From an uncultured Holophagales bacterium (GTDB lineage Bacteria; Acidobacteriota; Thermoanaerobaculia; Multivoradales; UBA5704), in NCBI GenBank assembly GCA_963842525.1, contig CAWJGT010000003.1, forward strand, positions 1,184,001-1,248,000: 64,000 nt of DNA. Reading direction: 5' to 3'. Shown here one piece after another: positions 18,697-39,797 of this stretch (positions are counted from its first letter, which is position 1; each line of letters opens with the position of its first letter). A program made the position numbers and the translations under genes. The notes beneath the pieces are model-generated. The model ran no database searches. It was not told where the DNA came from and saw nothing but the letters and a program-made list of their open reading frames with translations.

Positions 18697-18699
18697 TCG

Positions 18700-23095: not shown

Positions 23096-23167
23096 GGCAA
23101 AGGTCCTCGTTCCACAATAGGCGCCACCGAGCGCCGGCTGGTTCGGTCGCTGGCATTTGAAGATTGA

Positions 23168-23819: not shown

Positions 23820-25174
23820 TCACCATGCGGGGGTGGTGCTGGTGGAGCTGGCGGGCGTCGTAGGGCTGGCGGGCGTCGTAGGGCTGGCGGGCGTCGTAGG
23901 GCTGGCGGGCGTCGTAGGGCTGGCAGGCGTCGAGGGTCTGGTGGGCGCGGGCGCCGGCGTGCTCGGCGCGGGGGGGACGGCGCAGGCATGGTCAGCCTCT
24001 GGCTCAGGTCGCCGCGGCGCGCTGTTTCGGCCTGCGTCTGCGCGGCGAGGCGCGCGCGGCGCTCTTCCGTGGCGATGCGCATCTCGGCTTCGGGGTTGAG
24101 GGTGTTGACGCGGATGCGGTCGACGGCGCCCTGGCCCGCGAGGCGTTCGAGGGGCAGATAATCGGTCTTGAACACCAGCTCCACGGAGGAGCTCAGGTCG
24201 AGGTCGGTGTTCATCTCTTCCGTGGTCTGGGTGCGCTGGGTGGATACATAGCCGATGGTGTTCTTGACCTTCACATCCATACCCCAGAAGCTGGCCTTGG
24301 CTTCTGCTTCGTTGCGCAGGTCGAAGCTGCTGCCCCGATCGTCGGCCGCGGCGCTGCGGGTGTCGATATGGAAGCGCATGGCGGCATGCAGACGGCCGCT
24401 CTCGATGACGATCCGCTGCAGGCCGAGCATGACCATGGTGGAGAGCATCTGTTGGCGGTTGCGCGCGAGCGCGCCGCGGGCCATCGGCACCAGGCTTTCC
24501 GGATCGCCGCCGGGCAGCGCATCCTGGGGCCCCAGGCCGAGCGCCGTGCGCAACGCCCCTTCGGCAGGCATGGAGGCGCCGGGGCGCAGGCGCAGCCGCG
24601 TCCCGGCATCGCGCTCCTCCTGCTCCTCCGGCGTCAGGGGCTGGCCGGGCTCGGCGAACGGATCGCTCTCTCCTTCGACCACGAAGGCGCCGGGAAAGCG
24701 TTCGGCGAGCCAGCCGCGCGCGCCGTTCACGCCGACGTTGGCATCGGCGAACCCCTCGGTGGAGGCCGCCACGTTGCGGATCAGCTCCACGTACGAGCTG
24801 AGCTGCTGCTGGTTGGTGTCCACCAGAGCCTTGAACACGCCGGTGATCAGCTCGGTGACGAAGCGTGGAAAGGAGACCGCGTTGAGGATCTCCCGCGTGG
24901 TGCCGGCCACACGCTGGGGCGCGACGCCGCTGAATTCGCTGCCGGCGCTCTGGGCGCGGGCGAGCGCCGGGCGTGGTGGTGCCGTGGCAGTGGCGGCGTC
25001 GGACTCGGCGGCGAGCGCCAGCGCGGCGGAGCCGATCCTGACCAATCCCTGGGCGAGCTCGCGGCGCGTCGACGGATCGAGGCCCTGGAAGCCCGTGCTG
25101 GCGGTGAGCAGATCACGGATCGCGCCGCGCACCTGGGCAGGCGGTTGCTCCGGCCGTTCCAGGACGCCGGCCAT
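23820..25174 (-). CDS. Unknown family A protein 4 (helical N-part, long beta-hairpin, Pro/Thr tail); frameshift in G-run near 23970
   Basis: VSFPRFVTELITGVFKALVD, RQQMLSTMVMLGLQRIVIESG, VELVFKTDYLPL shared with three paralogues; restoring G8 gives the tail PASPTT x4 ...TPAW* ending at 23820. Confidence 0.8.
23850..23925. repeat. 18-bp tandem repeat x4 (GGCGGGCGTCGTAGGGCT)
   Basis: Direct inspection; encodes PASPTT on the minus strand. Confidence 0.9.
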
Positions 25175-25178
25175 GGCG

Positions 25179-26114
25179 TCACCCGGCCAGGGCGGCCCAG
25201 GGGGATTCGCCGCGCGCCGGCGGCGGCGCAGGGGCTGCCGATTCGCCGAGAGCGAGCGAGGCCTCCAGCCAATCCACCGCCGCCGGGATTACAGGGTGAT
25301 TGAGGCTCACCAGCGGTTTGCCGCCCTGCTCCAGGAAGGGAGCGGCCTCGGCGAGCCAGGACAGGAGCGTCATGCCCGCCTGGCCGCGGCGCACGTGCAG
25401 CGCAGGATCCATGCGCGGCCGGCGCGCCAGGCGCGCGACCGCGGCCACCACGCCCCAGACGTCGCGCGCGCCGAAGGCGCTTTTCACGGCGCGGTGGGCG
25501 AGGATCGCCAGGGCCTGCTTGACGGCCGCCAGGACCTCCTGCGCCAGGAACACGGTGAGCCCGCTGCTGACGCGCACCAGGTTGGCCAGCAGCCGCTGGG
25601 CCGCGGCGCGCACCCGCGCCTGCTGCGCCACGCCGCCCCAATCCGAATTGCTGGCCTGCTCGTCGAGCTTGTAGAGGGCCTCGCACAGGTCGATCAGCCG
25701 GTCTTCGAATTCCCGGTTGGGCGGCTGCTCCGAGTGATCGATCCCACCCGGTGCGCCGAACAGCGCGGAGAAGAACCCGCGCCGCTCGGCTTCGTTCGCC
25801 CGCTCGTTGCGCTGCCGCCAGAGCTCCTGCAGGAGACGAGCCGCCTCGCCCAGGTCGACGGCAAGGCTGCCGCTGCGGGCGAGCCGCGTCAGCGCCTCCG
25901 CGGCGCCGAGCACGTCCGCATCCTCCAGCTCGGAGGCCAGATAGAGCGTGGCAATGGCGCGGAGCTGCGCCTGGTCCACGACCGCGCCGGCGGACGGCGG
26001 CAATTCGATGGCATCGATCTCGTCGAGGGCGAATGCAACGGTGTGCGCCTGGGCGACGAGCTGCTCGGCGCGCTGCAGGGCGATCTCGAGGGCGGGATCG
26101 AGGTCGCGGGTCAT
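25179..26114 (-). CDS. Unknown helical family B protein 2
   Basis: ATGA-coupled start MTRDLDP; EAERRGFF, PNREFEDRL, VRAAAQRLLANL, FGARDVWGVV match the C-half of 29749-31470. Confidence 0.8.
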   Translation of the reverse strand: MTRDLDPALEIALQRAEQLVAQAHTVAFALDEIDAIELPPSAGAVVDQAQLRAIATLYLASELEDADVLGAAEALTRLARSGSLAVDLGEAARLLQELWRQRNERANEAERRGFFSALFGAPGGIDHSEQPPNREFEDRLIDLCEALYKLDEQASNSDWGGVAQQARVRAAAQRLLANLVRVSSGLTVFLAQEVLAAVKQALAILAHRAVKSAFGARDVWGVVAAVARLARRPRMDPALHVRRGQAGMTLLSWLAEAAPFLEQGGKPLVSLNHPVIPAAVDWLEASLALGESAAPAPPPARGESPWAALAG

Positions 26115-27331
26115 GGCCGGCTTCCGGAGGCAGCGGCGGTGCCGCGGGCGTTGGGGTTGAACGGCGTGGAGTTGCCCTGGATCACGGACATCATCTCCGG
26201 CGTGGCCATCTTTTCGAGCGGCAGGTAGTCGCTCTTGAAGTTGACCCGCACCTCGCCCGAGAGCCTGGCCTTGACCTCGGCCTTGGACTCGCTGGTCTCG
26301 TCCACCGCGGAGCCGACGGTGGCCACGTGCTCCTGCTCGCCTTCGAAGCTGGCGGATGCGTCCCAGGGTGACATCCACCCGCCGTAGCTGACACTGACGC
26401 TCTGGCGGTAGCGTTGCGCCGAGCGGTCCTGCATCGACGCCGTGTAGCGCCGTTTCGCCTTGTCCTCAGCCCTCATGTCGAAAACCACCTTGGCGTTGAT
26501 GGTGCCGTCCGTGACGACGATGCGATTGATGCCGAGCATCACCATGGAAGAGAGGAGCTGTTGGCGCGATTTAGCCATCTGGAGCCGCGCCGCGGTCACG
26601 ATCTTGAGCTCGGCGTTGGGATCGGAGACGTCGGTCACCGGCGGCTCGACGCCCAGCTCCCGGCTGATCTCCTGCAGCCGCTGCTCCGGATCGTCGCCGC
26701 GGGCGACCAGTTGAGTCGTGGTCGGGGCCGCTTCGCCCTCTTCCGCCAGCCCTCCCGAGCCCGCGTTGACCTCGACTTCCAGCGTGTCCGGAAAACGCTC
26801 GGCGAGCCAGTCGCGCCCGGCTCCCACCGAGATGTTGTCGGCCATGAACTGATCGACGGTCTTGGCCACGTTGGCGATCAGCTCGCCATAGGCGCGCATC
26901 TGCTCGATGGACGACTCGACGATGGCTTGAAACACATTTTTGATCAAGCCGCCGACGAACTTGGGGAAGTCCACCTTCTGCACCAGCGCGCCGAACTGCT
27001 CGACGCCTTCGCGCACGGCGCCGGCCTTGAATTTCTCGCCTACCAAGCCGGGCGACTCCGAGAGGTTGCGCTTGGTGGCTTCCACCGGGTCTTCCTCGTC
27101 CGCCTGCGCGCGGGCCACGGGCGCCGGCGGCGGAGCCGCGGCCGGCTCGAGCACGCCGTTGGGATTCGCGATGTAGGAGAGAATCTTGACCATGTCCCGG
27201 GCGAGCTGCTGCTGCTCGGCCGCGCCGAGCCGCGAGAAGGCGGGGACCGAGGTGAGCAGCTCGCGCACCTGCGGCCGCACGGCCTCCAGGGCCTGCGGCG
27301 TCGTCCAGGGCGCATTGGCGGGCGCTGCCAT
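26111..27331 (-). CDS. Unknown family A protein 3
   Basis: VDFPKFVGGLIKNVFQAIVESSIEQM, RQQLLSSMVMLGINRIVVTDG, GEVRVNFKSDYLPLEKM. Confidence 0.85.
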   Translation of the reverse strand: MAAPANAPWTTPQALEAVRPQVRELLTSVPAFSRLGAAEQQQLARDMVKILSYIANPNGVLEPAAAPPPAPVARAQADEEDPVEATKRNLSESPGLVGEKFKAGAVREGVEQFGALVQKVDFPKFVGGLIKNVFQAIVESSIEQMRAYGELIANVAKTVDQFMADNISVGAGRDWLAERFPDTLEVEVNAGSGGLAEEGEAAPTTTQLVARGDDPEQRLQEISRELGVEPPVTDVSDPNAELKIVTAARLQMAKSRQQLLSSMVMLGINRIVVTDGTINAKVVFDMRAEDKAKRRYTASMQDRSAQRYRQSVSVSYGGWMSPWDASASFEGEQEHVATVGSAVDETSESKAEVKARLSGEVRVNFKSDYLPLEKMATPEMMSVIQGNSTPFNPNARGTAAASGSRP

Positions 27332-27351
27332 GATGTTTCACCTCCCTGCGG

Positions 27352-28650
27352 TCATTGGGCCGGCGTTCCCGGGGGGGCCGCCGGGGCGGCGCCGCCCGGC
27401 GCCTGCGGGGTGCGCGCCGAAGGCACCACGTTGGGATCGACCGGCTGCGAATGGCCCTGGATGGCGGCGATCATGCCGGGCGTCGCCATCTTTTCGAGCG
27501 GCAGGTAGTCGCTCTTGAAATTGACTTCCACGTTGCCGGCGAGCTGGGCGCGCGTCGTCAGCGTGGATTCGGAGGCTTCCGAAGCCGTGCTCATGGCGGT
27601 CATGATCGGTTTTTCGGCGTACTTGTACTTGCCCTTGGAGTAGTAGTCCGAATTCCATTCGGATTGGAGGCCCTTGTCCTTGTCCCACGAGCTCTTGCCA
27701 GTCCTCGTGCCGCCCCTGTCCCACTCTCCCTCGCGGTCCCGCGTCCGGGCGATCTGTCCGTCCTCGGTTGCATAGTCGTAGGCGGTGGCGCTGCGCGCGA
27801 GCTTGCGGGCGTCGCGGGCCTGGAAGTCGTACAGGATCTTGGCCTGGATCCGCCCGTCGGTGACCACGATGCGGTTGATGCCCATGAGCACCAGGCTTGC
27901 CAGGAGCTGCTGGCGCTGGCGCGCGAGCTGTGTGCGCGCGGCGGTGACCAGCGCGAGCTCCGCGGTCTCGTCCGACAGGTCCATGCTCTTCAATTGGCCG
28001 TCCTGGAAATCCAGCGCACCATTGACCCGGCGCAACGCGGCGCTGTCGTCCACACCGTCGCGCAGCCGCAGGCGCGGGCCGGGGCTGTCGGAAAAATCAT
28101 CCGTGCCGATCTCGAACAGGTCGGGGAATTTTTCCACCATGTGGTCGCGCCCCTGGTTGGGTGTGACATTGTCCTCGCGGAAGCTCTCCAGGGACTTGGC
28201 CACCTGCCCGACCATGTTGGAATAGGCCTCCATCTGCTCGATCGAGGACTTGACGATGGCATGGAAAACCCCTTCGATCAGGCCGGCGACGAAGGTCGGG
28301 AAGTTGACCTGCTTCAGGAACAGGTCGGCGACCGCGGCGCCTTCGCGCGCCGCGCCGGCCGCGAAATCCTTATTGCCGATATCCTCGACGGCCTCCCAGC
28401 CCTTCTCGGACGTAGCATCCACTTCGCCGGCGAGGGCGCGGGCGGGCGGCGCGCCGGCTCCGCCTGGCAAGGTGTTGCCGGGGATGCCTTCCGGCGCCGC
28501 CAGGTAGTCGGCGATCAGCGCCGTGTCGTGAGCGATCTGCTGCTGCTGGGCCGCGGGCAGGCTGGCAAACGCGGATGACCGGGTGAGCAGCGTCTTGACG
28601 GCCTGGCGGACCTCGGGTCGCGGCGTCGGCGCGGGAGCGGTGGCAGGCAT
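27352..28650 (-). CDS. Unknown family A protein 2
   Basis: VNFPTFVAGLIEGVFHAIVKSSIEQM, RQQLLASLVLMGINRIVVTDG, GNVEVNFKSDYLPLEKM. Confidence 0.85.
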   Translation of the reverse strand: MPATAPAPTPRPEVRQAVKTLLTRSSAFASLPAAQQQQIAHDTALIADYLAAPEGIPGNTLPGGAGAPPARALAGEVDATSEKGWEAVEDIGNKDFAAGAAREGAAVADLFLKQVNFPTFVAGLIEGVFHAIVKSSIEQMEAYSNMVGQVAKSLESFREDNVTPNQGRDHMVEKFPDLFEIGTDDFSDSPGPRLRLRDGVDDSAALRRVNGALDFQDGQLKSMDLSDETAELALVTAARTQLARQRQQLLASLVLMGINRIVVTDGRIQAKILYDFQARDARKLARSATAYDYATEDGQIARTRDREGEWDRGGTRTGKSSWDKDKGLQSEWNSDYYSKGKYKYAEKPIMTAMSTASEASESTLTTRAQLAGNVEVNFKSDYLPLEKMATPGMIAAIQGHSQPVDPNVVPSARTPQAPGGAAPAAPPGTPAQ

Positions 28651-28674
28651 GACGATCACCTCGCAGGAAGAAAA

Positions 28675-29721
28675 TCAGGCCGCAATGGGACGCCCTGAGG
28701 CGCGCTGCAGCGCCTGCGGCGGCACTTCGAATTCGACCGGGCGCAGGTAGAGGCCCACGCGCGGCGGCATTGTGGCGCTGGTGCGCACGCTGAGGATCGA
28801 GAAACGCCCCGGCCAGACGTCGTCCTCCGGCGTGAAGGCCGCCAGCCAGCGCTCCAGGGCCGTGAGCTCGCGCGGACGCTCGCTCAAGCCCAGCGTCAGC
28901 AGGGAGAGGAACTCGGCCGGCAGGTCGGGGATCATGCCCAGCAGCACGTAGATTTCGAGCTCGACCCCGTCGGGCGACCGGCCGACGCCGATCAGCGTGG
29001 CCTGGGCCGGCAGGTCGAAGCGTCCGCCGAGCGCGAGCCCGAGGATCTGCAGGAGGCCGGGCATGCGCTGGCCGAGCCCGAGCGCATCGAGCAGCGGCTG
29101 CAGATCGGCGAGGCGCAACGGCCGCGGATGGGCGAAGGTGAGCCGCTGGCCGCCCGCATCGCGTTGCGCCGCGAGGGTGGTGAACAGCGGCACCAGCCCG
29201 GGCATGACCGAAAGCGCCGTCGACGCGACGCCGAAGAGCCCCATGGGCAGCGCGTCGATCTGTCCGGGTCCGGTCTCGTAGTACACCTTCGACGAGAAGA
29301 GCCCGTCGCGGTCATGGCCGGTGCCGAAGAAGGCGCCGTAATGGAGGTTCGATCCGGAGCCGAAGCCGCGCCAGGGCTCGCTGCGCTCGTCGAACCAGTG
29401 CAGGGCTTCGCGTCCGAAGAAGCTGCCCACCAGCCGGCGCATCTCGCGCGTCGCTTCGTCGCGCCGGTCCAGGCCCGAGGCCTCGGGCCCCAGCGGTTGC
29501 AGGTTGAAACGCAACGTGCCGGGCTGCAGCTCCGAATAGGACGGCTCGATGGGCGCCGCGCCGGGCGTCAGGGCATTGTCCGCATAACGCGGGTCGCCCT
29601 CGGGGAGAGTGAAGGTGCGGTCGAGCAGCCCCCGCATCGTAGGTGTGGGATCGGCGGTGCCGAGCCGCTGGGCCGCATGGCTCAGAAGGTTCGCCACCCG
29701 TGAAGCCAGTGCCTTTGCCAT
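28675..29721 (-). CDS. Putative DMATS/ABBA-type aromatic prenyltransferase-like protein
   Basis: LTPGAAPIEPSYS...LRFNLQP resembles the DMATS DGxPxExS...RxxxEP motif; KVYY and VGLYLRP strands; 348 aa; fold assignment by eye only. Confidence 0.5.
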   Translation of the reverse strand: MAKALASRVANLLSHAAQRLGTADPTPTMRGLLDRTFTLPEGDPRYADNALTPGAAPIEPSYSELQPGTLRFNLQPLGPEASGLDRRDEATREMRRLVGSFFGREALHWFDERSEPWRGFGSGSNLHYGAFFGTGHDRDGLFSSKVYYETGPGQIDALPMGLFGVASTALSVMPGLVPLFTTLAAQRDAGGQRLTFAHPRPLRLADLQPLLDALGLGQRMPGLLQILGLALGGRFDLPAQATLIGVGRSPDGVELEIYVLLGMIPDLPAEFLSLLTLGLSERPRELTALERWLAAFTPEDDVWPGRFSILSVRTSATMPPRVGLYLRPVEFEVPPQALQRASGRPIAA

Positions 29722-29748
29722 GATGTTCCTCCGTGTCTCCTGTGGCGC

Positions 29749-31470
29749 TCAGTGGCGCGTCATGCCCATGCCCAGCCCGAGCCCGGGCAATCCCGCCTGC
29801 TCCAGCATGTCGCGGGCGATCGAGGGGATCTGTACCGGCCGGGAGGTCATCACCGGCGATTCGCGCGGCTGCGACAGCTCCTCGACGCGGTCGTCGGACG
29901 TTGCGGTGTCGGCGAGCCACAGCTCGCAGGCGTTGACCAGGTCGTAGTCGGTGGGCTTGGTGGTGGCCTTCGGGCCGGCCGTCGACGGATACGCCGACAG
30001 CACCTCGTCGAGGTCGACGATGCGCGAGCTGGCCGGCCGGTTGAAGCGCTCCACGTTGTTGCCCAGCCAGGCGGTGATGATGGCGCCGCACGTCGCCAGC
30101 GTCCGGTAGCGTGCGCTGTTGCGGGCGCCGCCCAGCTCCAGCGTCGCCACTTGGTCGATCACCTGCCACATGTCGCGCGCCCCGTACGCGCCCATGACCT
30201 CCGGGTCGCCGAGGAGGTTGATCATCATTTGAATCTGGTCGCGCAGCTCGCGCGCGGCGAAGAAGGCCATCCCATACCCGTGCGACGACAGGTTGAGCGC
30301 GAGGTCGCGGGCCGCCTTGCGCACCTGCTGCTGGCTCAACGCGCCCGGCACGCGGTCGCGTACGTAATGATCGACCGTGCCCTGGCGCACCAGCTTGGAG
30401 ACCGAGGAGACGAAGCGGATCCACAGGTCGTTGAACTCCCGGTTCGTATTGCCGTTGCCGTCGCCGCCCGGGATTCCCAAGGTCAGCGCGTAGAAGTTGC
30501 GCCGCTCGGCCTCGGAGATCCGGTTCGGCGTGCTCTTCCAATAGTCATAGAGCATCCTGCCGGCCTTGCCGCTGCCGATGGGGAGCATGCCGTTTTGCGA
30601 CAGCTCGACCAGCTTTTCCACCACGGAGAAGGCTTTCAGCTCGTCGAACATCGCCGCGCAGATGATCGGCCCCATCAGCTTCACATTCTCGGACTGAATT
30701 TGATAATCGGTCGCATCGTTGAGGTCCGGCAACGAGATCCCGATGTCGGTGAACGGTTTTTCGACGCCTTCTCCCTGGATGGCGTCCAGGCATTCGTTGA
30801 CGCGCCGCTTGAGCTGCGGCTCGTCGGCCGTGATGCCCTTGCTGCGCAGACAACGGACGACCTGCGCGAGCTCGGCGGTGTCGACCACTCCAGCCACTTT
30901 GTCATCGTCGCTCTTGTCGCCCACGTCTTCGAGGATGGAAAGGACCAGCTTCGCCAGCTCGAAGCCGTCCTGTGTCTCGCCGAAGGCCGCATAGAAAGCT
31001 CTACTGAACCGGCCGTGCTCAGGGTCCGTCTTGTCTGCCACGATTTCAGGATCACCTGACTTGGGGGTAGGCTGCACGGTCAGGCGCGGGAGCCGAGCCC
31101 GATCGATCGCCAGCAGGCCGAGGACCAGCGAGACGGTGACGACGTCCTCGAACTCCAGGGCAGCCTTGGGAGCAGCCTTGGGGATGGCCTGCAGCTTTCC
31201 CTGGTCATGATTCACCAGGGTCTTGTCGGGAAGGACGCCGCTCAGGTTGAGGTAGTCGCGAGCGGCGACGTACAGCGGGTCGGCCACCTCGAGCTTCGGG
31301 GCCACGGCCAGGCGTTTGAGGAGCTTTTCGATCCGTTCGAGGTTCTCGTTCTCTTCCTTCGTCAGCGGCACCTTCTTTTTGAGGCGGTCCCTGTCGATCC
31401 GCAGAGTTTCTCGCTCCTCTTCGTCGCGCGCTACGAGGTCATGGAAAACGATGTCGGTCACGGCGGCCAT
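29749..31470 (-). CDS. Unknown helical family B protein 1 (573 aa, N-terminal extension)
   Basis: Long ORF with RBS; EAERRNFY, NREFNDLW, VRKAARDLALNL, YGARDMWQVI motifs. Confidence 0.85.
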   Translation of the reverse strand: MAAVTDIVFHDLVARDEEERETLRIDRDRLKKKVPLTKEENENLERIEKLLKRLAVAPKLEVADPLYVAARDYLNLSGVLPDKTLVNHDQGKLQAIPKAAPKAALEFEDVVTVSLVLGLLAIDRARLPRLTVQPTPKSGDPEIVADKTDPEHGRFSRAFYAAFGETQDGFELAKLVLSILEDVGDKSDDDKVAGVVDTAELAQVVRCLRSKGITADEPQLKRRVNECLDAIQGEGVEKPFTDIGISLPDLNDATDYQIQSENVKLMGPIICAAMFDELKAFSVVEKLVELSQNGMLPIGSGKAGRMLYDYWKSTPNRISEAERRNFYALTLGIPGGDGNGNTNREFNDLWIRFVSSVSKLVRQGTVDHYVRDRVPGALSQQQVRKAARDLALNLSSHGYGMAFFAARELRDQIQMMINLLGDPEVMGAYGARDMWQVIDQVATLELGGARNSARYRTLATCGAIITAWLGNNVERFNRPASSRIVDLDEVLSAYPSTAGPKATTKPTDYDLVNACELWLADTATSDDRVEELSQPRESPVMTSRPVQIPSIARDMLEQAGLPGLGLGMGMTRH

Positions 31471-31499
31471 TTTGCATCTCCTTGCTTTCAGGGTTCAGT

Positions 31500-32933
31500 T
31501 CATTCCTCGTCGACAGAGTACGCGTCCTCCGGGAGGGAGCTGTCGATGAAGGCGTCCAACGCCTGCAGCGCCGCATGGGAATCGAGCACTCCCGCGCCGC
31601 ACCCCGCGGGCGCCGGAGCCGGAAAGGGAGCGGCCGATTCCATCAGCAGGCTGCGCAGGCAAGCGCCGTCGACCGGCGTCGCGCGGCGCCGGGCGCGGGA
31701 GACCATCAGCGCCGCCGTGGCGGCCACGAAGGGTGCGGCGAAGCTGGTGCCGGTGGCAAGTTGGTACTCCGTGAGCGCGAGGGTGCGGACGCGCTCGCCC
31801 GGCGCGCACAGGGCCACATGCCCGCCGCGGGTGGAAAACGTGCTGGGTATGCCGCGCTCGCCGGCCGAGCCCACGGCGATCACGCCCGGATAGGCGGCCG
31901 GCCAGTAGCGCGTCTCCTTGCCGTTGTTGCCGCTCGCGGCCACCAGGATGCAGCCGTGATCGAGGGCGTACTCCACGACGTCCCGGTGCGGCTTCGGGCT
32001 TCCCGGCTCGAGGCTCGCGTCGTCCGTGCCGAAGCTCATGTTGATGACCTTGGCGCCCAGGTCCACTGCCATTTTCATGGCCATGTCAAGGTCGCTGATG
32101 GCGCCGATGCCGACGGCGTTCGTCTTGCCGGGGAAGCGCGCCGCGCCGAGCCCGCGCAACGGCAGGATGCAGGCCTCGCCGGCCAGGCCGGGCGGCATCG
32201 CCACGCCGAGCGCGCCGATGATGCCGGCGCAGCCCATGCCATGGCCGACGAAACGGTCCACCGGGCTCGCATCCGCCCGCGACGAGTCGCCCAGGAGCTC
32301 GAGCCCGAGCGCCACGTCCGAGCGGCCGAGCTGCACGGTGTCGTAGCCGGCGCGCAGCCGCCCCGCCAGCTCGGGATGGTCCGGCGCCACACCGCTGTCC
32401 ACCACCGCAACGATCACCGCGGGATCGCCCTGCTCGTAGGCGAGCGCCTCCGCCGCGTGCACCTGCTGCCAGGGCGCCCATTCCAGCTCGTTCTCGGCGC
32501 CGGCCGACAGCTCGAAGGGGGTGACGCAGCAATAGTTGGGCGAAGCGGCCTCCACGATGGCGACCTGGCTGAGCGAGTCCACCAGCGGCTCGATCGCGGT
32601 GCCCGCGGGCACGTCGATGCGGAAGGTGCGGGCGAGGCCGAAGATCTGCTCGCGGTCGTCGAAGCCCTGATGCCGCTCGCCGGGCCGGCCGAGGCTCGCG
32701 GCTGCCGCGTGCACCCGCGCCACCCGCAGGCCGCCGGCGAAGTGGCGCACGATGCGGTCCACCACGCCGCCGTCCAGCTTTTCTCTGGCGGGCAGGTACC
32801 CGGGGCGCACGTCCAGGGCCGTCGGGATCGCTTCGGGAGCCTCGCCCAGCGCGAGCTTCAGCACCACGCTGCCCGGCAGGCAGTAGGCGCGTCCGTGGGT
32901 GGCCCAGGGCATGGCGAGCGCGCTGGATTTCAT
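31500..32933 (-). CDS. S8 subtilisin-like serine peptidase, no signal peptide
   Basis: Triad VAVVDSG / GHGMGCAG / TGTSFAAP; oxyanion AASGN; ATGA coupling. Confidence 0.93.
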   Translation of the reverse strand: MKSSALAMPWATHGRAYCLPGSVVLKLALGEAPEAIPTALDVRPGYLPAREKLDGGVVDRIVRHFAGGLRVARVHAAAASLGRPGERHQGFDDREQIFGLARTFRIDVPAGTAIEPLVDSLSQVAIVEAASPNYCCVTPFELSAGAENELEWAPWQQVHAAEALAYEQGDPAVIVAVVDSGVAPDHPELAGRLRAGYDTVQLGRSDVALGLELLGDSSRADASPVDRFVGHGMGCAGIIGALGVAMPPGLAGEACILPLRGLGAARFPGKTNAVGIGAISDLDMAMKMAVDLGAKVINMSFGTDDASLEPGSPKPHRDVVEYALDHGCILVAASGNNGKETRYWPAAYPGVIAVGSAGERGIPSTFSTRGGHVALCAPGERVRTLALTEYQLATGTSFAAPFVAATAALMVSRARRRATPVDGACLRSLLMESAAPFPAPAPAGCGAGVLDSHAALQALDAFIDSSLPEDAYSVDEE

Positions 32934-33737
32934 AACGCACCTCCTGGGTCGCCCGACCCTCTGGTGCCATTGCCGCCGTTGCCGCCGCGCCAGAAAGGGC
33001 GCAGATCGAAGGCCATGGCGGCGGCCCGCTGCGGTGCGGGCTCGACGACGAGCTCGCCGGCCATCTGGTGCGCCAGCGGCGCGATCACCAGCTCGCGCTC
33101 GTCGGCGCGCACCACGCTCACGGGCTCTCCTCCCACCGTGACGCGCGGCAGGCCCTCCTTCATCAGGTTCCGGCCGCGGATGCGCACCAGGTTGGGCAGG
33201 CCCGCGGCCTCCTCGTGCGACGGCGGCACCGGCAGCACGTGCTCCACCAGCGGCGCCGAGGCGCGCTCCAGGGCGTTGCGCAGGCGGTCCACCGGCAGGT
33301 TGGTGACGCGCCCCACGGTGCGCGAATCCCCCCGCTCTTCGATCTCGCGCAGCTTCGACACGGTGCGCACGCCCACCCATTCGAGCCGGCGCCGCTCGTC
33401 CTCTGAGAGGTCGTCCTTGAGCTCGTCGATCGATCTCTCCTGGGGGTCTTCCGAGAAGGCGATGGCGTTCTCCTCGATCATCGGCCGCGTGATGGCGGCG
33501 AATTCGAGATGGAAGACGCTCGCTTCCTTGTCGCTGGCGCTCGCCGGCCGGATGCGGATCTCCGAGCGGGCAAACTCCACGTGGGCGCGCAGGTCGAGCT
33601 TGATGTCACGGATGGCGAAAGTGAGCGGAAGGTCGAGGTTGCGCGCCTTGACCGCCATCGCCGTCTGGGCGTTGTCGAGCTGGCTCTGCACCGCCTGGAT
33701 GAAGTGCTCCAGAGGCAGGGTGGAGTCAGAAGCTCAC
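32930..33737 (-). CDS. Trypco/Pepco-like N-domain + helix-hairpin + IPT/TIG domain protein (start uncertain)
   Basis: LEHFIQAVQSQLDNAQ...LTFAIRDIKLDLRAHV; LSEDERRRLEWVGVRTVSKL; VRIRGRNL..PRVTVGG; open frame begins directly after the TGA of the upstream gene. Confidence 0.65.
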
Positions 33738-33982
33738 GAGGCCTCCCTTTTCGCCCAGACGACGTGCAGGCGAGCCGGCGGCGTGTCGAAGACGGTGCGG
33801 GTGATGGTGCGCGGCACGTCGCCGAGCAGCTCGATCTCGTCCCCCGCGCGATGCCACGCGACCTCGATGGGAAGGTCGACCTCAATGGCCTGCACCAGGA
33901 GGCCCGGCGCCGCGGCCAGGGCGTCCAACGTGCCCGCGGCCACCTCGGCGAGCATGTTGGCGAGGGTGCGGCGAGCGGTCAT
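33734..33982 (-). CDS. Small unknown protein (82 aa) of the operon
   Basis: ATGA-coupled; MTARRTLANMLAEVAAG...IEVDLPIEV...DVPRTITRTVFD. Confidence 0.7.
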   Translation of the reverse strand: MTARRTLANMLAEVAAGTLDALAAAPGLLVQAIEVDLPIEVAWHRAGDEIELLGDVPRTITRTVFDTPPARLHVVWAKREAS

Positions 33983-35043
33983 CGCGTGCCTCCGGCGGGC
34001 GGTGCGGCAGGTGCCGGCGGGGTGGCAGGCGCCGTTTCGGGTGCTGCCGGCGGTGCTGCCGGTCGTGGTGCGGTGATACTGGCCGCGGCCCGCGCGTGCC
34101 GTTCCAGCAGGGTGCGCTTGGCTTCGTCGACGAAGCGGTCGAGGGGGACCGTCTCGCTGGCGAAGTTGATCTTCACCTCGCCGAAGAGCTCGGCCTTGAG
34201 CTCGCTGTCGGTCTGTGCGTTGACGCCCACCGTGGACACCTTGGTGGAGGGCAGCGAAAACGTGCGGCTGCCGCGCCGGCCCCACTCGCTGCCGCTACCG
34301 CCCGGATCGTCCGACACCGCATAGTCCACCTTGGCGTGGTCGGCCGCCGCGGCGCGAAAGCGCAGCCGTGCGCCGATGCTGCCGTCCTTCACCACGACGC
34401 GGTGCATGCCGAGCAGGACCATGGTCGACAGGGTCTGCAGCCGGTTGCGCGCCACGCGCTCGCGTGCCCGCGGCACGAGCTGCTCTTCGACGAGCTCGGG
34501 CGTCAGCTCCTCGCCGGCGAGCCCGAAGTCGGCCAGCCATTCGGGCGGCGGGGGAGCTTCTTCGTCTTCGGCGGCCTGCTTGCGAGGCAGGACGCGCGGG
34601 GACTCCGCGTCCCGCAGCAGGACGAGGTCGTGCGGATATTGCTCCACCAGCCAATCGCGAGCCTGGTTGAGCGAAACGTTTTCCTGGGTAAACTGATCGA
34701 TCGGCTTGGCGACCGCCGCCACGAGGTCGGCAAAGCTTTCCATCTGGCGGATGGCGGAATCGACGATCGCGTCGAAAGTACCGTGCACCAGCGAGGCGAC
34801 GAACTCGGGAAAATCCAATTCATCAGACAGCGCCCCCGCGCGCCGGCCGATCGTCTCGGTCGCCGCCTCCCGCTTGGAGCCCGAACCGTTCCCGTCAAAG
34901 GTTGGCTCCGGTGAGGCCGGCTCGGGCTCGTCGATCTCCCGCCCGAAGGCATCGCGCGCCAGCGACTGCGCAACAGGCGCCGCCTCGGCCCGGCGCACGG
35001 CCGGCGGCGGCGGAGGCAGTCTCTTGTCGTTCCCGTGGGCCAC
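33979..35043 (-). CDS. Unknown family A protein 1 (lacks helical leader)
   Basis: LDFPEFVASLVHGTFDAIVDSAIRQM, LSTMVLLGMHRVVVKDG, GEVKINFASETVPL. Confidence 0.85.
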   Translation of the reverse strand: MAHGNDKRLPPPPPAVRRAEAAPVAQSLARDAFGREIDEPEPASPEPTFDGNGSGSKREAATETIGRRAGALSDELDFPEFVASLVHGTFDAIVDSAIRQMESFADLVAAVAKPIDQFTQENVSLNQARDWLVEQYPHDLVLLRDAESPRVLPRKQAAEDEEAPPPPEWLADFGLAGEELTPELVEEQLVPRARERVARNRLQTLSTMVLLGMHRVVVKDGSIGARLRFRAAAADHAKVDYAVSDDPGGSGSEWGRRGSRTFSLPSTKVSTVGVNAQTDSELKAELFGEVKINFASETVPLDRFVDEAKRTLLERHARAAASITAPRPAAPPAAPETAPATPPAPAAPPAGGTR

Positions 35044-35064: not shown

Positions 35065-38000
35065 TCAGTGAACCAACGCCGTCTGCCACCTGCTGCGGCG
35101 CTCGAGCTGTCCATCACCGTAAAGGGTCAATTCGGTAATTCCCAACGGCGTAGAGCCGTCCGGCGCCGTGAAGCGGTACTCGATCTGCACCTTCAGCGTC
35201 GAGATCCCCGCACCGTTCGTGCCCGGCGGCACGGGCTCGTCCAGGATGCGGGCGTGCACGTCGAGCGTGACGCTGTTGGCATTGCGAGCCTCGCCCGCGG
35301 CGATGCGGATGTTGCCGACGCCGCCCGATTCGAACTCCCAATCGACCGTCAGCGGCAGGCTGGCGGGACCGTCGCTTCCTTCCACATAGGGCCAGTCGCT
35401 CAGCCGCACCGTTGGCGTAATGCAGGACGCTGCGCCCGGCGCCACTCCCGGCGGCCGTTTGAAGCCGCGCAACTGGTCGAGCTGCCAGCGGATGTTGCCG
35501 GCCGCTCCCTCCACGCGCTCGATCGCAGCGCCTGGGAACAGGGGAGGTACGATGGCGCCGGTCGCCTCGTCGAGAGCGACGGCGCGGCGTATCTGCTGGT
35601 GGAGAGGCGCCCCGTTGCTCGGCGCCGGCGCGGCCTGCGCGAGCGCCAGCGACTGAGCGGCGGTTGCCTGCACGGCTTCGAAGACCTGGATCGGCAACAC
35701 GCCGAGCCCCACGCCCAGGCCGAAGGTGACGCCCTGGAAGCGCCACGAGGTATCGAACAACGCCTGGGCGCTGACCGAAACGCCCAGATCCACTTCCACC
35801 CCGGTCGCCCAACTGATGCCGGAGAAGCTCTCGATGCCGCCGGAGACAATGGTGAACTGGAGCTCCACCGACGCGCTTGCGAGGATGAGGCCGGTGCGAA
35901 TGTCGAACTGGCCGTAGAAGCCGATCTCGTCGTCGGGCGCGAAGATGATGCCCGCGCCCCCTCCGCCGCCGACCAGGATGAAGCCGACGTTCGCCGTCGG
36001 GCCGATGGCGATGCTCACGTTGTAGCGGTTCGCCGCCGCGCGCACCATCGCGACCAGCGCCGACGCGGGGAACAGCGCGGCGAGCGCTACCTCCCTTTCC
36101 CACCACGACGCCTCGTCCGTCGGCGGAAAGCGAGCCGGACGGCGCTCGGTCCCCAGGGCGCGCACTACGCCCCGGCCTTGTGGCAGTGTCGGCGCGGCGC
36201 TCGCGGCGCTGGCCAGCGGCGCCGAAGGACCGAGAAATGCCTGGAGGTCCTCGGCAGGCACCCCCTGAGAGAGCAGGCGGGTTACGAGCTCCACTAGGCT
36301 GGGGCCGATCTCGCCGGCCCGGGCGATGACCTGCTCGGCGCTCGCCGCGCTGAAGGCGCGAGCGCTCTGGACCACCTGCACCGCGGGGAGGCTGGCCGCC
36401 ATAGCATAACCGCGTGGCGTGGTCTGACGGTTGGGCGTGTAGCGACGGGCGTACGGGATACCATTCTCATCGCTGCCGGCGTGCGAAATCTGCACATTCA
36501 CCGCCCCTGTGGGCGAAACGGTCACGCGGTCCTCGTACTCGCGCACGAAGCTCTCCCACGTCAGGATGTAGCGGCTGCCCCTATTGTGGGTTCCCAGATT
36601 GGGACCGAGCGTACCGATCGTAGGAGCCGGACCAAAATCCCAGGGATCGGCGATGCGCACAAAGGTGTCGGAGCCGTCCGGCGCGCCGTCGCTGTACATG
36701 CCGGTGACGACGATGGCATGGCCGTTACCGGATCGCGCTATGCCGATCCACAGCGGGCCGCACGTTTCCAGCAGATTGCGAAAGGCGTCGAGGGAGTAGG
36801 ACTGGGGCTCTTCATACGCGAGCCCGATATCGATTGCAAACTGCTGCCGCTCGCTGGCATAGAAATTGGTTGTGGTGGTACGACCCTGGCTCACGGCAAC
36901 GTATTCGGGCGTCACCGTTCGATGATCCCGCCAGCCCAGAACCATGGCCGCCGCGGTAGCCCAGCAGGAATTGCCGGTCGGCTGGTTAATGAGATTCACA
37001 TCCCAGTTGATCGAGAAGGACTCGTTTGCCAGCGGACGCGCGACGCTGCGGCTGGCTGCCATGGCATAACCGGCTGGTGCGGTCTGACGGTTTGGCACAT
37101 GGCTGCCGATGCCGCCCGCGTGCAGGATCTGCACATTCACCGCGCCCGTGGGCGAAACGCTGGAGCGGTTCTGGTACTCGCGCACGAAAGTGTCCCATGT
37201 CAGGATGTAGCGGCTACCCGTGTTGTGTGTCCTAAGATTGGGGCCGAGGGTGCCAACCGGAGCCGGACCGAAGTCCCAGGGATCGGTGATGCGGACGTAA
37301 GTGTCGGAACCGTCAGGCGCGCCGTCGCTGTACATGCCGGTGACGACGACGACATGGCCGCCGCGGCCTCGCTGTACGCTCACCCAGAGCGGCCCGCACC
37401 TTTCGAGCATGTCGCGAAAGCCCTCGATGCTATAGGACTTGGGCGCCTCGTAGATGAGCCCGACCTCCTCGGCGAACAGCCTCCGATCGTCGCGATCCAG
37501 CCCATTCTGCAGTGTGCGGCCGGCTACTTGACCAATGTATTGGGGGTCGACCGACGCATCGTCTCGCCAACCGAGCACCATCGCTGCGGCGGTGGCCCAG
37601 CAAGACATATCGGTCGGCTGGTTGATGGGCTGCACGCCGTCCCAGTTGATCGAGAAAGACTCATTCGCCAGCGCCATGGGCGCCGGCGTGCTCGCGGAAA
37701 CTGGCGGCGGAGGAGGCGCCAGCGGACCGAAGCCGTCGTCGTAAGCCGGCGCGGCGGCCGGCGCGTGGCCATTACCGCCGGGGGCCGCGGGCGCCGGTCT
37801 CATGGCGCCTGCCGCAGGCTCCTGACCGGGAGCAGCGGCGTCGCCGGCCCACTCCAGCGCGCTCTTGCCATCGGCACCGTAGCCTGCCGCGCGCTGCTGG
37901 CGGCTCGGCACCACCCTCACCCGTTTGAGGCTCCGTCCGGTCAAACCCTGGAGCGAGATGTACGGGCTTCCCTCGCTCGGCATCACCGCCACCTGCGGCG

Positions 38001-38319
38001 CCGTGCCGTTGCGCTCCGGCATGGTGGCGAGGCCGAAATAGAGGCGGCCCTGGCCGATGAAGCGTGCCAGCACCTCGGGCGGTACGACATAGATCGCCTC
38101 GCCGCGCGGCACCAGCAGCGGCCCGCCGGCGCGGCTGGAATAGAAGTTGCCGCCGGTGCGCTCCGCCTTCTTGTCAGGGCGGAACAAGGAAGGGTCCGTC
38201 GCGACCGCCACCTCGGCGCGCTGGGGCGATCCGTCCGTACGGATCGTGAAACCGAGCATCGGAAACCGGTCGCTGACCTCGAGCCGGTTGGGACGAATCT
38301 GAGCGGCCATGACCATCAC
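35065..38319 (-). CDS. 1084-aa modular protein with two papain-like (AvrRpt2/C39-like) cysteine protease domains
   Basis: Twice: QPT.xSCWA, GPLW, GH(V/A)(V/I)VVTGM, DPW (Cys-His-Asp intact); separate N- and C-terminal domains and a Gly-rich beta module. Confidence 0.85.
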   Translation of the reverse strand: MMVMAAQIRPNRLEVSDRFPMLGFTIRTDGSPQRAEVAVATDPSLFRPDKKAERTGGNFYSSRAGGPLLVPRGEAIYVVPPEVLARFIGQGRLYFGLATMPERNGTAPQVAVMPSEGSPYISLQGLTGRSLKRVRVVPSRQQRAAGYGADGKSALEWAGDAAAPGQEPAAGAMRPAPAAPGGNGHAPAAAPAYDDGFGPLAPPPPPVSASTPAPMALANESFSINWDGVQPINQPTDMSCWATAAAMVLGWRDDASVDPQYIGQVAGRTLQNGLDRDDRRLFAEEVGLIYEAPKSYSIEGFRDMLERCGPLWVSVQRGRGGHVVVVTGMYSDGAPDGSDTYVRITDPWDFGPAPVGTLGPNLRTHNTGSRYILTWDTFVREYQNRSSVSPTGAVNVQILHAGGIGSHVPNRQTAPAGYAMAASRSVARPLANESFSINWDVNLINQPTGNSCWATAAAMVLGWRDHRTVTPEYVAVSQGRTTTTNFYASERQQFAIDIGLAYEEPQSYSLDAFRNLLETCGPLWIGIARSGNGHAIVVTGMYSDGAPDGSDTFVRIADPWDFGPAPTIGTLGPNLGTHNRGSRYILTWESFVREYEDRVTVSPTGAVNVQISHAGSDENGIPYARRYTPNRQTTPRGYAMAASLPAVQVVQSARAFSAASAEQVIARAGEIGPSLVELVTRLLSQGVPAEDLQAFLGPSAPLASAASAAPTLPQGRGVVRALGTERRPARFPPTDEASWWEREVALAALFPASALVAMVRAAANRYNVSIAIGPTANVGFILVGGGGGAGIIFAPDDEIGFYGQFDIRTGLILASASVELQFTIVSGGIESFSGISWATGVEVDLGVSVSAQALFDTSWRFQGVTFGLGVGLGVLPIQVFEAVQATAAQSLALAQAAPAPSNGAPLHQQIRRAVALDEATGAIVPPLFPGAAIERVEGAAGNIRWQLDQLRGFKRPPGVAPGAASCITPTVRLSDWPYVEGSDGPASLPLTVDWEFESGGVGNIRIAAGEARNANSVTLDVHARILDEPVPPGTNGAGISTLKVQIEYRFTAPDGSTPLGITELTLYGDGQLERRSRWQTALVH
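36391..37665 (-). repeat. Intragenic tandem duplication of the ~640-bp protease module
   Basis: Both units run from LANESFSINWD to GYAMAAS. Confidence 0.88.
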
Positions 38320-38696
38320 CTCTTCCGGGTTGAGAGTTGGACGGGCACCATGGAAAGATCGCTCGCGTCATCGCGGCGGACGTCCACGGCCCGGCGTTCG
38401 AAATCGGGCAGCGAGCGCAGGACCGTCGCGAGCGGATCCGGCGCGTCCGCGACGTCAGTGATCAGTCCGTTGTCGGTCTCGTACTGGCCTACCGCGTTGT
38501 GCAGCATCGTGGCGAACAGCTTGGCGTGGGTCGGCCCCATCGCAATGCGGGTGTGCAGCATGACGTTCGACACCTCCGGCTGGAGCTGGCCGAAATCGAT
38601 CAGGAATTCGTAGGGGTTGTGCCCCACCTCGAAATAGTTGGTATAGCGGGCCAGCGGCGCGCGCGCGGAGCGGGTGGATGGACGTTTGATCGGCAT
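38316..38696 (-). CDS. DUF3467-like protein, first gene of the sigma-54 operon
   Basis: YTNYFEVGHNPYEFLIDFGQ...RIAMGPTHAKLF...YE...G pattern. Confidence 0.75.
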   Translation of the reverse strand: MPIKRPSTRSARAPLARYTNYFEVGHNPYEFLIDFGQLQPEVSNVMLHTRIAMGPTHAKLFATMLHNAVGQYETDNGLITDVADAPDPLATVLRSLPDFERRAVDVRRDDASDLSMVPVQLSTRKR

Positions 38697-38727: not shown

Positions 38728-38744
38728 GGCAAGCCGCATGCCAG
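38728..38744 (-). promoter_or_regulatory. Sigma-54 -24/-12 promoter
   Basis: Minus strand CTGGCATGCGGCTTGC: GG-N10-GC matching TGGCAC-N5-TTGC, ~32 bp upstream of the ATG. Confidence 0.85.
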
Positions 38745-38867: not shown

Positions 38868-39797
38868 CTACGCCGACCGATCGATATGGTATTTCGCCAG
38901 CTTGCGGTAGAGGGTCATCCGCGACCAGTTCAAGCTCTTGGCCGCCTCCGCCTTGTTCCATTTCGTCTGTTCGAGCGCTCCCAGGAGCTGGTCCCGTTCA
39001 CTCGGCGCGCTGGCCCGATAGCGCAGGAACATGTTTTGGAATACCGGCGGCAGGTCGGCAAGGCCGATGCCTCCGCTGGGCGGATCGATGAAGATCGCTT
39101 CCACCAGGTTGCGCAGCTCGCGCACGTTGCCCGGCCAATCATGGGCCAGCAGGCAGCGGATCAGCTCGCCGTCGGGTGCGCCGACCGCGCGGCGGTCGCG
39201 GAGGTTCAATTCCTCGGTGGCATGGCGGAACAGCAGCGGGATGTCTTCCGGGCGTTCTTTCAGCGCCGGCAGATCCAGCCGCGCCACGTTGAGCCGGTAA
39301 AAGAGGTCGGTCCGAAAGCCACCGCTCTGCATCAGGGATTCGAGCGGCAGGTTGGTGGCGGCGATCACGCGCAGGTCCACGGCAACGGTCCGTCCCGCGC
39401 CCACCGGCGTGACCTCGTGGGTCTCCAGCACGCGCAGCAGCTTCGGCTGGGCGTGCAGTCTCATCTCGCCGATCTCGTCGAGGAAGAGCGTTCCGCCGTC
39501 CGCCTGGACCACATGCCCCTTGCAGGCGCTCACCGCTCCTGTGAACGCGCCGCGTTCATGGCCGAAGAGCTCCGACTCGATCAGGCTGTCCGGCAACGCC
39601 GCGCAGTTGACGGCGACGAATGGGCGGCGGGCGCGCGGGCCCAATGCATGGAGCGTCCGCGCGACCCGTTCCTTACCCGTCCCGGTGGCACCCGTGATCA
39701 GAACGGTCGCCGGCGAGCGGGCGACCTTCGGCAGATAGGCCCGCAGCGCGGCCATTGCCGGACTGATTCCCACGACCATCTCCACAAGATCGGCCAT
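38868..39797 (-). CDS. Sigma-54 enhancer-binding protein (AAA+ and Fis HTH) without N-terminal sensor domain
   Basis: GATGTGKE, ESELFGHERGAFTGA, LFLDEIG, FRTDLFYRL, WPGNVREL, SRMTLYRKL; only 309 aa. Confidence 0.95.
   Translation of the reverse strand: MADLVEMVVGISPAMAALRAYLPKVARSPATVLITGATGTGKERVARTLHALGPRARRPFVAVNCAALPDSLIESELFGHERGAFTGAVSACKGHVVQADGGTLFLDEIGEMRLHAQPKLLRVLETHEVTPVGAGRTVAVDLRVIAATNLPLESLMQSGGFRTDLFYRLNVARLDLPALKERPEDIPLLFRHATEELNLRDRRAVGAPDGELIRCLLAHDWPGNVRELRNLVEAIFIDPPSGGIGLADLPPVFQNMFLRYRASAPSERDQLLGALEQTKWNKAEAAKSLNWSRMTLYRKLAKYHIDRSA

Follow-up and report, generated by a model that had tools for sequence, protein, structure and literature searches.

Organization of the cassette

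The stretch of DNA analyzed here, referred to as the window, comprises 64,000 nucleotides (nt) of contig CAWJGT010000003.1 from an uncultured Holophagales bacterium (positions 1,184,001 to 1,248,000 of the forward strand), and its main subject is a cassette of 13 minus-strand genes that encodes four paralogous proteins, designated family A. The window has a G+C content of about 68%, and its genes were called by third-position G+C and then by homology. In the order of transcription, the cassette encodes a sigma-54 activator, a DUF3467 protein, a giant protein with Peptidase_C70 (C70) domains, A4, a protein of 82 amino acids (aa), a 253-aa protein, an S8 subtilase, B-long, a 348-aa protein with the DMATS fold, A3, A2, B-short and A1. 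Intergenic distances range from -4 to 42 nt, and overlaps of 4 nt join the A4 stop to the start of the 82-aa gene, the stop of the 253-aa gene to the S8 start and the A2 stop to the B-short start. The copy that the initial annotation, a description made from the sequence alone, had called A1 is named A4 here (33979-35043), while A1 denotes the gene at 23820-25174. A crude hydropathy scan of all cassette proteins detects no signal-like N-terminus and no strong transmembrane helix (maximum 19-residue score 1.9), so that all of them look cytoplasmic.

Four family A paralogues

The family A genes encode A4 (354 aa, 33979..35043), A3 (435 aa, 27352..28659), A2 (406 aa, 26111..27331) and A1, which runs from 25174 down to about 23820; all four lie on the minus strand. 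The fourth gene of the initial annotation, which ends at 23820, does not form a single open reading frame as assembled: A1 has an intact core and a tail that is out of frame with it. That the four proteins are related paralogues is borne out by a four-way alignment, in which the cores align along their full length with 31-34% identity to the first sequence. A2, the most conserved copy, is 42% identical to A3, 32% to A4 and 30% to A1. A profile built from 78 diverse family members matches exactly four places in the whole 9.95-Mb genome, all of them in the cassette (E 3e-145 to 9e-81, with E 8.8e-81 for A4). The paralogy of the four genes is thus far beyond chance.

The conserved blocks described in the initial annotation, F-P-x-F-V..L....F.A.V, R..(L/M).E..P, Q.L...V..G..R.V...G and V...F.(S/T)...PL, each contain invariant residues, with one correction of spacing: the invariant Q of the first motif follows the V by six residues (V-five residues-Q) and not by three. 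A leader of about 45 aa with the pattern VR..(V/I)(R/K).LL... is present in three copies and mostly missing from A4, as had been noted; the alignment and the profile agree on this, since the profile match of A4 covers positions 66-372 only. Likewise, the Ser/Thr/Gly-rich insert between two conserved strands is real. It differs in length between the paralogues and is longest in A3, and it aligns with almost no length change inside each orthologue group, which suggests a defined structure rather than a random linker. At the C-terminus, each of the four proteins has a low-complexity tail of Pro, Ala, Ser and Thr whose sequence differs freely from one orthologue to the next.

Family A is widespread but patchy: HMMER, run exhaustively against 1.84 billion cluster representatives (clusters at 50% identity), retrieves 1382 at E <= 0.001, 830 at E <= 1e-10 and 213 at E <= 1e-30, yet only one of 400 other sampled genomes of the same phylum contains a match at E <= 1e-10, and that match is partial. 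A word-indexed protein search scored 8000 candidates and recovered 2424 proteins at E <= 0.001; the best 120 of these, at 64-100% identity, lack Pfam domains and are annotated as hypothetical where named. Across phyla, A2 retains 60-77% identity. At normal thresholds, Pfam, NCBIfam and PADLOC give no match for the A and B proteins or for the 253-aa, 82-aa and 348-aa proteins. A permissive Pfam scan of the 78 family A members (E <= 10) yields DUF6683 on the leader in 15 of them (best E 3.3e-4) and otherwise scattered noise, and a sequence-profile search of the PDB with family A returns nothing useful (best E 0.025, Nephrocystin-1). Longer members contain no informative fused domain (a methyltransferase in one of 12 is probably a read-through), and when short proteins homologous to the hairpin half are sought, fragments alone appear, none of them with a Pfam family. 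No match is present among 50,697 phage records. In a search of sequencing runs, no RNA run is recovered, and four soil-metagenome DNA runs contain 5-9% of the words.

Predicted fold and the amphipathic hairpin

An AlphaFold2 prediction of A2 from the 78-row alignment has a mean predicted local distance difference test (pLDDT) score of 71.7 and a predicted template modelling (TM) score of 0.49. In this model, the leader, for which the initial annotation had suggested the role of an inhibitory pro-domain, forms a helical hairpin (residues 12-55, pLDDT about 90-95) and is followed by a disordered linker of low pLDDT (residues 61-100) that carries a conserved (L/V)-A-R-A-(Q/L) motif. Residues 104-265 form a helix bundle with long helices at 122-156 and 238-265 and a pLDDT >90 in many blocks. 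The two conserved strands (residues 276-294 and 345-365) are modelled at a pLDDT of about 60-75, and the insert (residues 292-351) at <50. Together, strands and insert make up a predicted beta-hairpin (residues 276-365; 26237..26506, minus strand), whose tip contains Trp319 (26375-26377). The proposed combination of a helix bundle and a long hairpin is therefore supported by the A2 model for the bundle and the flanking strands, while the insert itself is of low confidence; the opposing case, a compact globular fold without a hairpin, is not what the model shows.

The hairpin sequences point to a two-faced structure. Column-averaged hydropathy alternates with a period of two along both arms, one face consisting of Ala, Val, Ile, Phe and Tyr and the other of Lys, Glu, Asp, Arg and Ser. 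The period-2 moment of A1, A2 and A4 is 1.16-1.32, compared to 0.62-0.65 in shuffled sequences (reached by none of 500 shuffles), and that of A3 is 0.87, compared to 0.57 (reached by three of 500). At the hairpin tip, a G-x-W motif is conserved, with Trp in 57 of 59 A1, 57 of 62 A2 and 51 of 52 A4 orthologues. Among the 78 diverse family members, 61 have the tip Trp and 12 more have Tyr or Phe. The A3 tip is Tyr-rich and lacks a conserved Trp, and in distant cassette variants a Trp lies inside the insert of 38 of 56 A copies.

Structure searches were run with the full-length A2 model and not with its core alone; 'no known fold' is thus not established by them. Foldseek against the PDB gives no match at E <= 0.001, the best being an integrative FliF-YlxF model (E 8.4e-3, TM 0.11). 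The VIA wide structure search reaches a best Z of 5.2, with every top row covering residues 5-68 only, the VIA second-look search a best Z of 4.8, and a search of the predicted viral structures in BFVD a best E of 5.6e-3. An oligomer prediction with three copies of A2 residues 100-395 scores 0.01 against a mark of 0.42, the fold of the chain itself being uncertain, and this result speaks neither for binding nor against it.

These features can also be read without a pore. The A and B proteins could build a cytoplasmic or cell-associated shell, filament or tube in which the hairpin packs against protein or faces lipid or gas, and which the proteases mature as in capsid- or gas-vesicle-like assemblies. 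The very high conservation of the proteins and their fixed subunit positions are typical of architectural proteins, the amphipathic arms exceed bilayer length, and transmembrane or signal segments are lacking. Weak structural matches to lower collar proteins of the phi29 type (Foldseek E 0.04-0.3) and to flagellin (Z 3.3) go in the same direction, as both are tube-building helical domains with a beta-hairpin or insert; these matches are, however, at noise level. In addition, no resemblance to known shell, capsid or gas-vesicle families is seen, and a cell-wall hydrolase and a prenyltransferase would be left without a role, which makes this explanation unlikely.

Comparison with known families

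A loose resemblance of family A to DUF2589 and to the Trypco folds had been suggested in the initial annotation and is not recovered by sequence comparison, as Pfam matches are lacking and hhalign probabilities stay <1%. None of the 78 members matches DUF2589 (PF11655), even at E <= 10, and the DUF2589 model finds no match in the genome itself (true members occur in three of 301 genomes). Comparison of the 78-row alignment with 5 and 26 DUF2589 sequences by hhalign gives probabilities of 0.15% and 0.57% over 11-15 columns, the two runs aligning different segments and the DUF2589 alignments being shallow (Neff about 3). In a language-model look-up of family A, DUF2589 is the only named family (rank 12, score 0.78, below the trust line). 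By eye, the elements come in a similar order in both: an (L/F)-P motif at the start of a long helix, then a strand, a hairpin rich in Ser and Thr whose tip resembles G-W-G-P, and a final strand with L-P behind it. DUF2589 proteins are shorter (about 180-290 aa), and no solved structure was found for them by sequence. Kinship with DUF2589 thus remains a lead. Trypco2/Pepco (PF19631) is not among the families matched by the 78 members; its hhalign probability against family A is 0.25%, and its model also has no match in the genome (true members in eight of 301 genomes).

Pepco is nevertheless the closest functional parallel to the pore or tube subunits that had been proposed. According to the preprint, this 117-aa protein pre-assembles into beta-barrels of 9-10 subunits that have a charged lumen and a hydrophobic outer surface, with amphipathic helices at the base, and becomes toxic once a neighbouring protease removes its charged, Pro-rich C-terminal tail (Evans et al., bioRxiv 10.1101/2025.11.14.688446). 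Pepco proteins (Trypco1/Trypco2), as described there, and family A share one or more amphipathic helices followed by a beta-hairpin with charged and hydrophobic faces, a disordered Pro-rich C-terminal tail, a serine or cysteine protease in the same operon and the lack of a signal peptide. Pepco is, by the same account, a single gene of about 117 aa next to a sensor-protease, whereas family A proteins have 350-435 aa and occur as four fixed paralogues. Family A further differs in its five-helix bundle, its leader and its much longer hairpin, and the protease gene is not adjacent to every A copy; the cassette lacks a sensor domain, is under sigma-54 control and contains an additional prenyltransferase and giant hydrolase.

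Beta-pore-forming toxins of the aerolysin and alpha-haemolysin type, among which activation by proteolysis is common, show a comparable hairpin of alternating polar and hydrophobic residues with flanking Ser/Thr-rich stretches, and the period-2 moment of the A hairpins agrees with an amphipathic membrane-insertion hairpin of this kind. These toxins are secreted and act from outside, whereas family A has no signal peptide and a helical rather than beta-rich body. The A proteins could also be secreted multi-component toxins of the ClyA/Hbl/Nhe kind, which carry a beta-tongue and are aimed at other cells. The presence of several paralogues in one operon, and of a bundle of helices joined to a beta-hairpin, is reminiscent of tripartite alpha-pore-forming toxins, and weak Pfam HlyE matches occur in two of the 78 members (best E 0.0072). 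Set against this, chains of beta-pore-forming toxins or of the ClyA family are absent from the matches of the full-length A2 model (Foldseek PDB and VIA searches), with no ClyA-family chain at a useful score, signal peptides and secretion genes are lacking, and the A hairpin is far longer than a beta-tongue. A toxin of this kind is highly improbable. Finally, a membrane opener encoded together with a signal-less cell-wall hydrolase resembles holin-endolysin systems by functional analogy only: holins are small alpha-helical membrane proteins, no homologue is encoded in the cassette and no phage genes are present.

Partner proteins

The 348-aa protein (28675..29721, minus strand) is confidently assigned an aromatic prenyltransferase fold of the DMATS/ABBA type on the basis of its predicted structure. 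The AlphaFold2 model has a pLDDT of 93.2, a predicted TM score of 0.90 and five alpha-alpha-beta-beta repeats (PT-barrel fold), and Foldseek against the PDB returns 128 matches at E <= 0.001, led by CymD (6os3, E 1.7e-12, TM 0.72) and followed by DMATS1, PriB, IptA, 5-/6-DMATS and TleC. Pfam Trp_DMAT does not match the protein of the window and matches 15 of 31 orthologues weakly (best E 1.8e-4). Sequence-profile searches of the PDB with the 348-aa protein, DUF2589 and family B yield nothing useful. E115, R187 and R327 are invariant in the 348-aa family, and Y148, R86, R95, R118, R234, R282 and R321 near-invariant. Compared to the indole prenyltransferases CymD, PriB, IptA and DMATS1, the fold is the same at about 13-18% identity; the known enzymes belong to natural-product clusters and have free Trp, small indoles or peptides as substrates, whereas the 348-aa protein is encoded beside structural paralogues and proteases.

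The S8 subtilase (477 aa from an ATG at 32933; 31500..32933, minus strand; Pfam Peptidase_S8 E 1.7e-37) has the triad motifs D180, H231 and S397, with VVDSG, HGMG and GTSFA at residues 177, 231 and 395. Its best NCBIfam match is mycosin (149.6 bits, cut-off 278.75). The giant protein (1084 aa, 35065..38319, minus strand) consists of a conserved N-terminal domain, two papain-like Peptidase_C70 domains (PF12385, E 2.9e-56 in two stretches) and a Gly-rich C-terminal part of no known family. Both C70 domains retain the Cys, His and Asp residues (240/322/346 and 452/535/558) and the motifs SCWAT, GH(V/A)(V/I)VVTG and (T/A)DPWD. The counterpart in Burkholderia pyrrocinia (1144-4908 of that locus) carries Amidase_2 (E 3.8e-25), Peptidase_C92 and one C70 domain, and up to four C70-like segments are found at other loci. 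Since the domain sets differ between genomes, the giant protein appears to be a polymorphic carrier of cell-wall-hydrolase and peptidase domains.

The 253-aa protein (32930..33691, minus strand) has no Pfam match; its C-terminal part is IPT/TIG-like, as TIG is matched weakly in one of 28 orthologues and in a cyanobacterial counterpart (E 8e-4). Its N-terminus shows a colinear, weak similarity to Trypco2 (hhalign E 0.018, probability 2.5%), and the 82-aa protein (33734..33982, minus strand), which was placed by tblastn at related loci and has no Pfam family, aligns with Trypco2 at E 0.021 over 26 columns; both are leads only. A profile-profile comparison of the 82-aa and 253-aa proteins finds nothing. 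B-long (573 aa, 29749..31470, minus strand) and B-short (311 aa, 25179..26114, minus strand) belong to no known family and are paralogues of each other (29% identity over 230 aa, E 3e-22); a language-model look-up for B-long returns nothing.

The enzymes suggest a further explanation, in which the cassette is a peptide or natural-product pathway: the A proteins would be precursors or scaffolds, and the prenyltransferase together with the S8 and C39/C70-like peptidases would process an A-derived peptide or make a prenylated small molecule. Prenyltransferases of the ABBA type act in natural-product biosynthesis, leader peptides are cleaved by papain-like domains of the C39 type, the tails of the A proteins are hypervariable, and the S8 protein has a below-threshold similarity to the PatA/PatG cyanobactin proteases (E 8.7e-25, 87.5 bits against a cut-off of 421). 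No precursor peptide, however, resembles the A proteins, whose four fixed paralogues have a conserved part of about 300 residues. Their variable tails are of low complexity (Pro/Ala/Ser/Thr) with no conserved aromatic acceptor, and no transporter, cyclase or tailoring gene is conserved downstream. A role of this kind is very unlikely.

Conservation, control and spread of the cassette

A pattern scan of one genome per species yields 80 loci that encode relatives, onto which the window proteins were mapped by tblastn. At 50 of the 80, C70, A4, the 253-aa protein, S8, B-long, the 348-aa protein, A3, A2, B-short and A1 follow each other in identical order and strand. Four loci lack only the C70 match of this ten-gene set. 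Another 11 contain part of the set in the same order, interrupted where a contig ends, and the last 15, which are more distant variants (33-38% identity), share the backbone and carry four or five copies of A. At 45 of the 80 loci, the 82-aa gene lies between A4 and the 253-aa gene. No 14th gene is conserved downstream of A1, where the largest cluster comprises seven loci. Carriers include Alpha-, Beta- and Gammaproteobacteria, Desulfobulbus, Actinomycetota, Acidobacteriota, Planctomycetota and others. In Burkholderia pyrrocinia, the cassette lies on an 880-kb replicon (pBPJTT), where the NCBI annotation lists a sigma-54 regulator, DUF3467, an 'N-acetylmuramoyl-L-alanine amidase', an S8 peptidase and hypothetical proteins.

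A tree of 75 A proteins groups every positional paralogue into one clade (support 99-100); the four clades repeat the same internal branching, and Actinomycetota sequences nest among those of Pseudomonadota. The four clades and their shared branching indicate that the duplications predate the spread and that the quartet evolves and moves as a block; judged from these sequences, the quartet appears to be old and to move between phyla as a unit, and the cassette to be horizontally mobile.

The first two genes point to dedicated control. The activator (309 aa, 38868..39797, minus strand) consists of an AAA+ domain (Pfam Sigma54_activat E 5e-64) and a Fis-type helix-turn-helix (HTH_8 E 4e-13), without a receiver or sensor domain, a layout that we take to be PspF-like, that is, with its activity controlled by a partner protein. 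By this analogy, DUF3467 or another cassette protein could be the partner. Homologues that are 61-73% identical lie directly upstream of the cassette in three of three other genomes, and DUF3467 just upstream of it in three of five genomes searched. The DUF3467 protein of the window (126 aa, 38316..38696, minus strand) matches its Pfam family above the cut-off (E 3.6e-13). A candidate -24/-12 promoter element of the sigma-54 type, identified by pattern match (TGGCAT-N5-TTGC, 38729..38743, minus strand), is located about 33 nt before the DUF3467 start codon. It is one of two matches with <=1 mismatch in the 64 kb of the window, in which the pattern is not enriched (40 found and 60.8 expected at <=2 mismatches). 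Similar elements precede the same gene in two of three other loci; in the third, the gene was not located by pattern.

Two departures from the common layout are seen. In five loci of a distant subgroup (L065, L066, L068, L070 and L072), the last A gene is followed by a gene for a protein of about 1380 aa, and a sigma-54 activator is encoded on the other strand about 5 kb downstream, which suggests a rearranged layout of the same parts. A reduced variant occurs on Tolypothrix/Microchaete plasmids (Tolypothrix sp. PCC 7712 plasmid, 135168-149584) and encodes an alpha/beta hydrolase, an S8 protein, a peptidoglycan-binding protein, a B-like protein, one A-like protein, two unknowns, a small protein and a TIG protein. 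No prenyltransferase is present within its 14.4 kb, and the tip of its A-like protein has Phe, Tyr and Gly and no Trp. As a single distinct locus, this variant is an anecdote.

The A1 tail and the neighbouring block

As assembled, the frame that opens at 25174 runs for 668 codons into a MaoC hydratase gene, while the Pro/Ser/Thr-rich A1 tail ending at 23820 lies in another frame, entered at a C7 run (23970-23976). A stretch of 140 nt (24067-23928) recurs 5.4 kb downstream at 18695-18555 and is identical except for the C7 run, which is C8 in the duplicate; a further duplicated pair is found at 23733-23789 and 18311-18370. The downstream copy encodes an orphan in-frame tail (open frame 18896-18408) with no A core upstream. 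Between the two tail copies (18402-23665) lie genes for a MaoC-like protein (23168-23665), a TPR protein (20927-23095) and a CHAT protease (19810-21174), and a PIN open reading frame on the plus strand (18402-19427). Because its genes are absent from all 80 related loci, this block is placed outside the cassette, and its content looks like that of an inserted conflict-system-like module. The duplicated sequence suggests that the block was inserted or duplicated into the A1 tail, or that the assembly is wrong here. No real similarity to the A1 tail DNA is seen in any of 20 close relatives. After the orphan tail, a second MaoC-like hydratase and a VTT/DedA membrane protein are encoded (16926-17423 and 17420-18070, respectively); they too are missing from the 80 related loci and probably mark the original neighbourhood downstream of the cassette. 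Elsewhere in the window, positions 56001-60000 have a G+C fraction of 0.53-0.55 (about 0.68 in the rest) and may be a foreign island or an RNA operon.

The TPR-CHAT pair that landed beside the cassette would fit an anti-phage, abortive-infection or programmed-death module, in which proteases would unleash the A proteins as pore formers that kill the infected cell, as with Pepco, EACC1 or bacterial gasdermin. Such protease-plus-effector logic is widespread, with a Pepco barrel that is activated by tail removal in the account of the preprint cited above. The cytoplasmic look of all cassette proteins, the single match among 400 phylum genomes and the nesting of Actinomycetota in Pseudomonadota, which together make for a patchy, horizontal distribution, would also suit defence. 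On the other hand, the TPR-CHAT genes are missing from all 80 related loci, PADLOC matches only a generic subtilase/IetS-like model on the S8 protein, and there is no STAND, Avs or CARF sensor, control being exerted by a dedicated sigma-54 activator. A cassette of 13 genes with four plus two fixed paralogues is, moreover, far heavier than known protease-effector pairs, and its sequences are very highly conserved across phyla. Defence is therefore considered a rather doubtful function.

A putative envelope-breaching device

The reading favoured here, to which a probability of roughly 0.4 is given, is that A1-A4 are non-redundant subunits of one self-contained device that breaches the envelope for lysis or export, combining proteolytic maturation and a hairpin-driven hetero-oligomeric barrel or tube with membrane insertion and access to the wall. 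After induction, the S8 subtilase, the C70 domains or both would trim the leader or tail of the A proteins. The hairpins of different A subunits would then join laterally to form a hetero-oligomeric beta-barrel or tube, whose hydrophobic face would enter the cytoplasmic membrane from the inside. The DMATS-type prenyltransferase may prenylate the tip Trp and thereby drive or trigger insertion, and the opening would allow the signal-less giant cell-wall hydrolase/peptidase to reach the wall. Assembly into a pore or tube is plausible. The stronger version, in which the DMATS-fold enzyme modifies the tip Trp and a lipidated four-subunit barrel opens the membrane and passes the hydrolase, seems unlikely.

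In favour of this device are the four paralogues found nowhere else in the genome, their four clades of like branching, the amphipathic hairpins, the retained tip Trp, the fixed gene order, the intact protease motifs, the confident prenyltransferase fold, the Amidase_2 domain of the Burkholderia counterpart, the lack of signal-like and transmembrane segments and the conserved sigma-54 activator and promoter element, together with the precedent of the protease-activated Pepco barrel (bioRxiv 10.1101/2025.11.14.688446). Several points weigh against it. The insert, which would have to supply most of the barrel, reaches a pLDDT of only <50 in the model. The amphipathic arms have 25-40 residues, far beyond the need of a bilayer, and their hydrophobic face could pack against protein. 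No fold relative among pore formers was found with the full-length A2 model (Foldseek, VIA, BFVD). The role given to the tip Trp is at odds with A3, which lacks it, and with the distant variants, whose A copies contain a Trp in the insert in only 38 of 56 cases; alternatively, a small molecule could be the product of the prenyltransferase. The giant protein of the window has peptidase domains of the C70 type only, and no domain in it is recognised as a cell-wall hydrolase. Lastly, an identity of 60-77% across phyla is unusually high for a pore-forming effector, and this conservation of A2 fits a structural assembly equally well.

Implications

The observation of four related proteins is confirmed, and the main new result is the conserved cassette context in which they are found. 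Family A comprises more than 1000 clusters at 50% identity, yet it has no name, domain model or structure. Searches of the open PubMed Central full text and bioRxiv turned up no description of the cassette and no paper that pairs Peptidase_C70 with a prenyltransferase, and retrieved DUF2589 and DUF3467 only in unrelated papers. No described secretion, lysis, defence or biosynthetic system matches the combination of a subtilase, an indole-type prenyltransferase, a polymorphic hydrolase/peptidase and a private sigma-54 activator. As a compact and self-regulated cassette that is present in culturable, non-pathogenic genera such as Sphingomonas, Phenylobacterium and Cellulomonas, it makes the question of its function directly testable. 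If the hairpins form a membrane barrel, they would represent a new way to breach the envelope of the cell itself or of a neighbour, and if the tip Trp is prenylated, aromatic prenylation would extend from metabolites and short peptides to folded proteins. The cassette would then define a new class of envelope-breaching or protein-export machines, with its own sigma-54 switch, that crosses phyla as a 13-gene unit.

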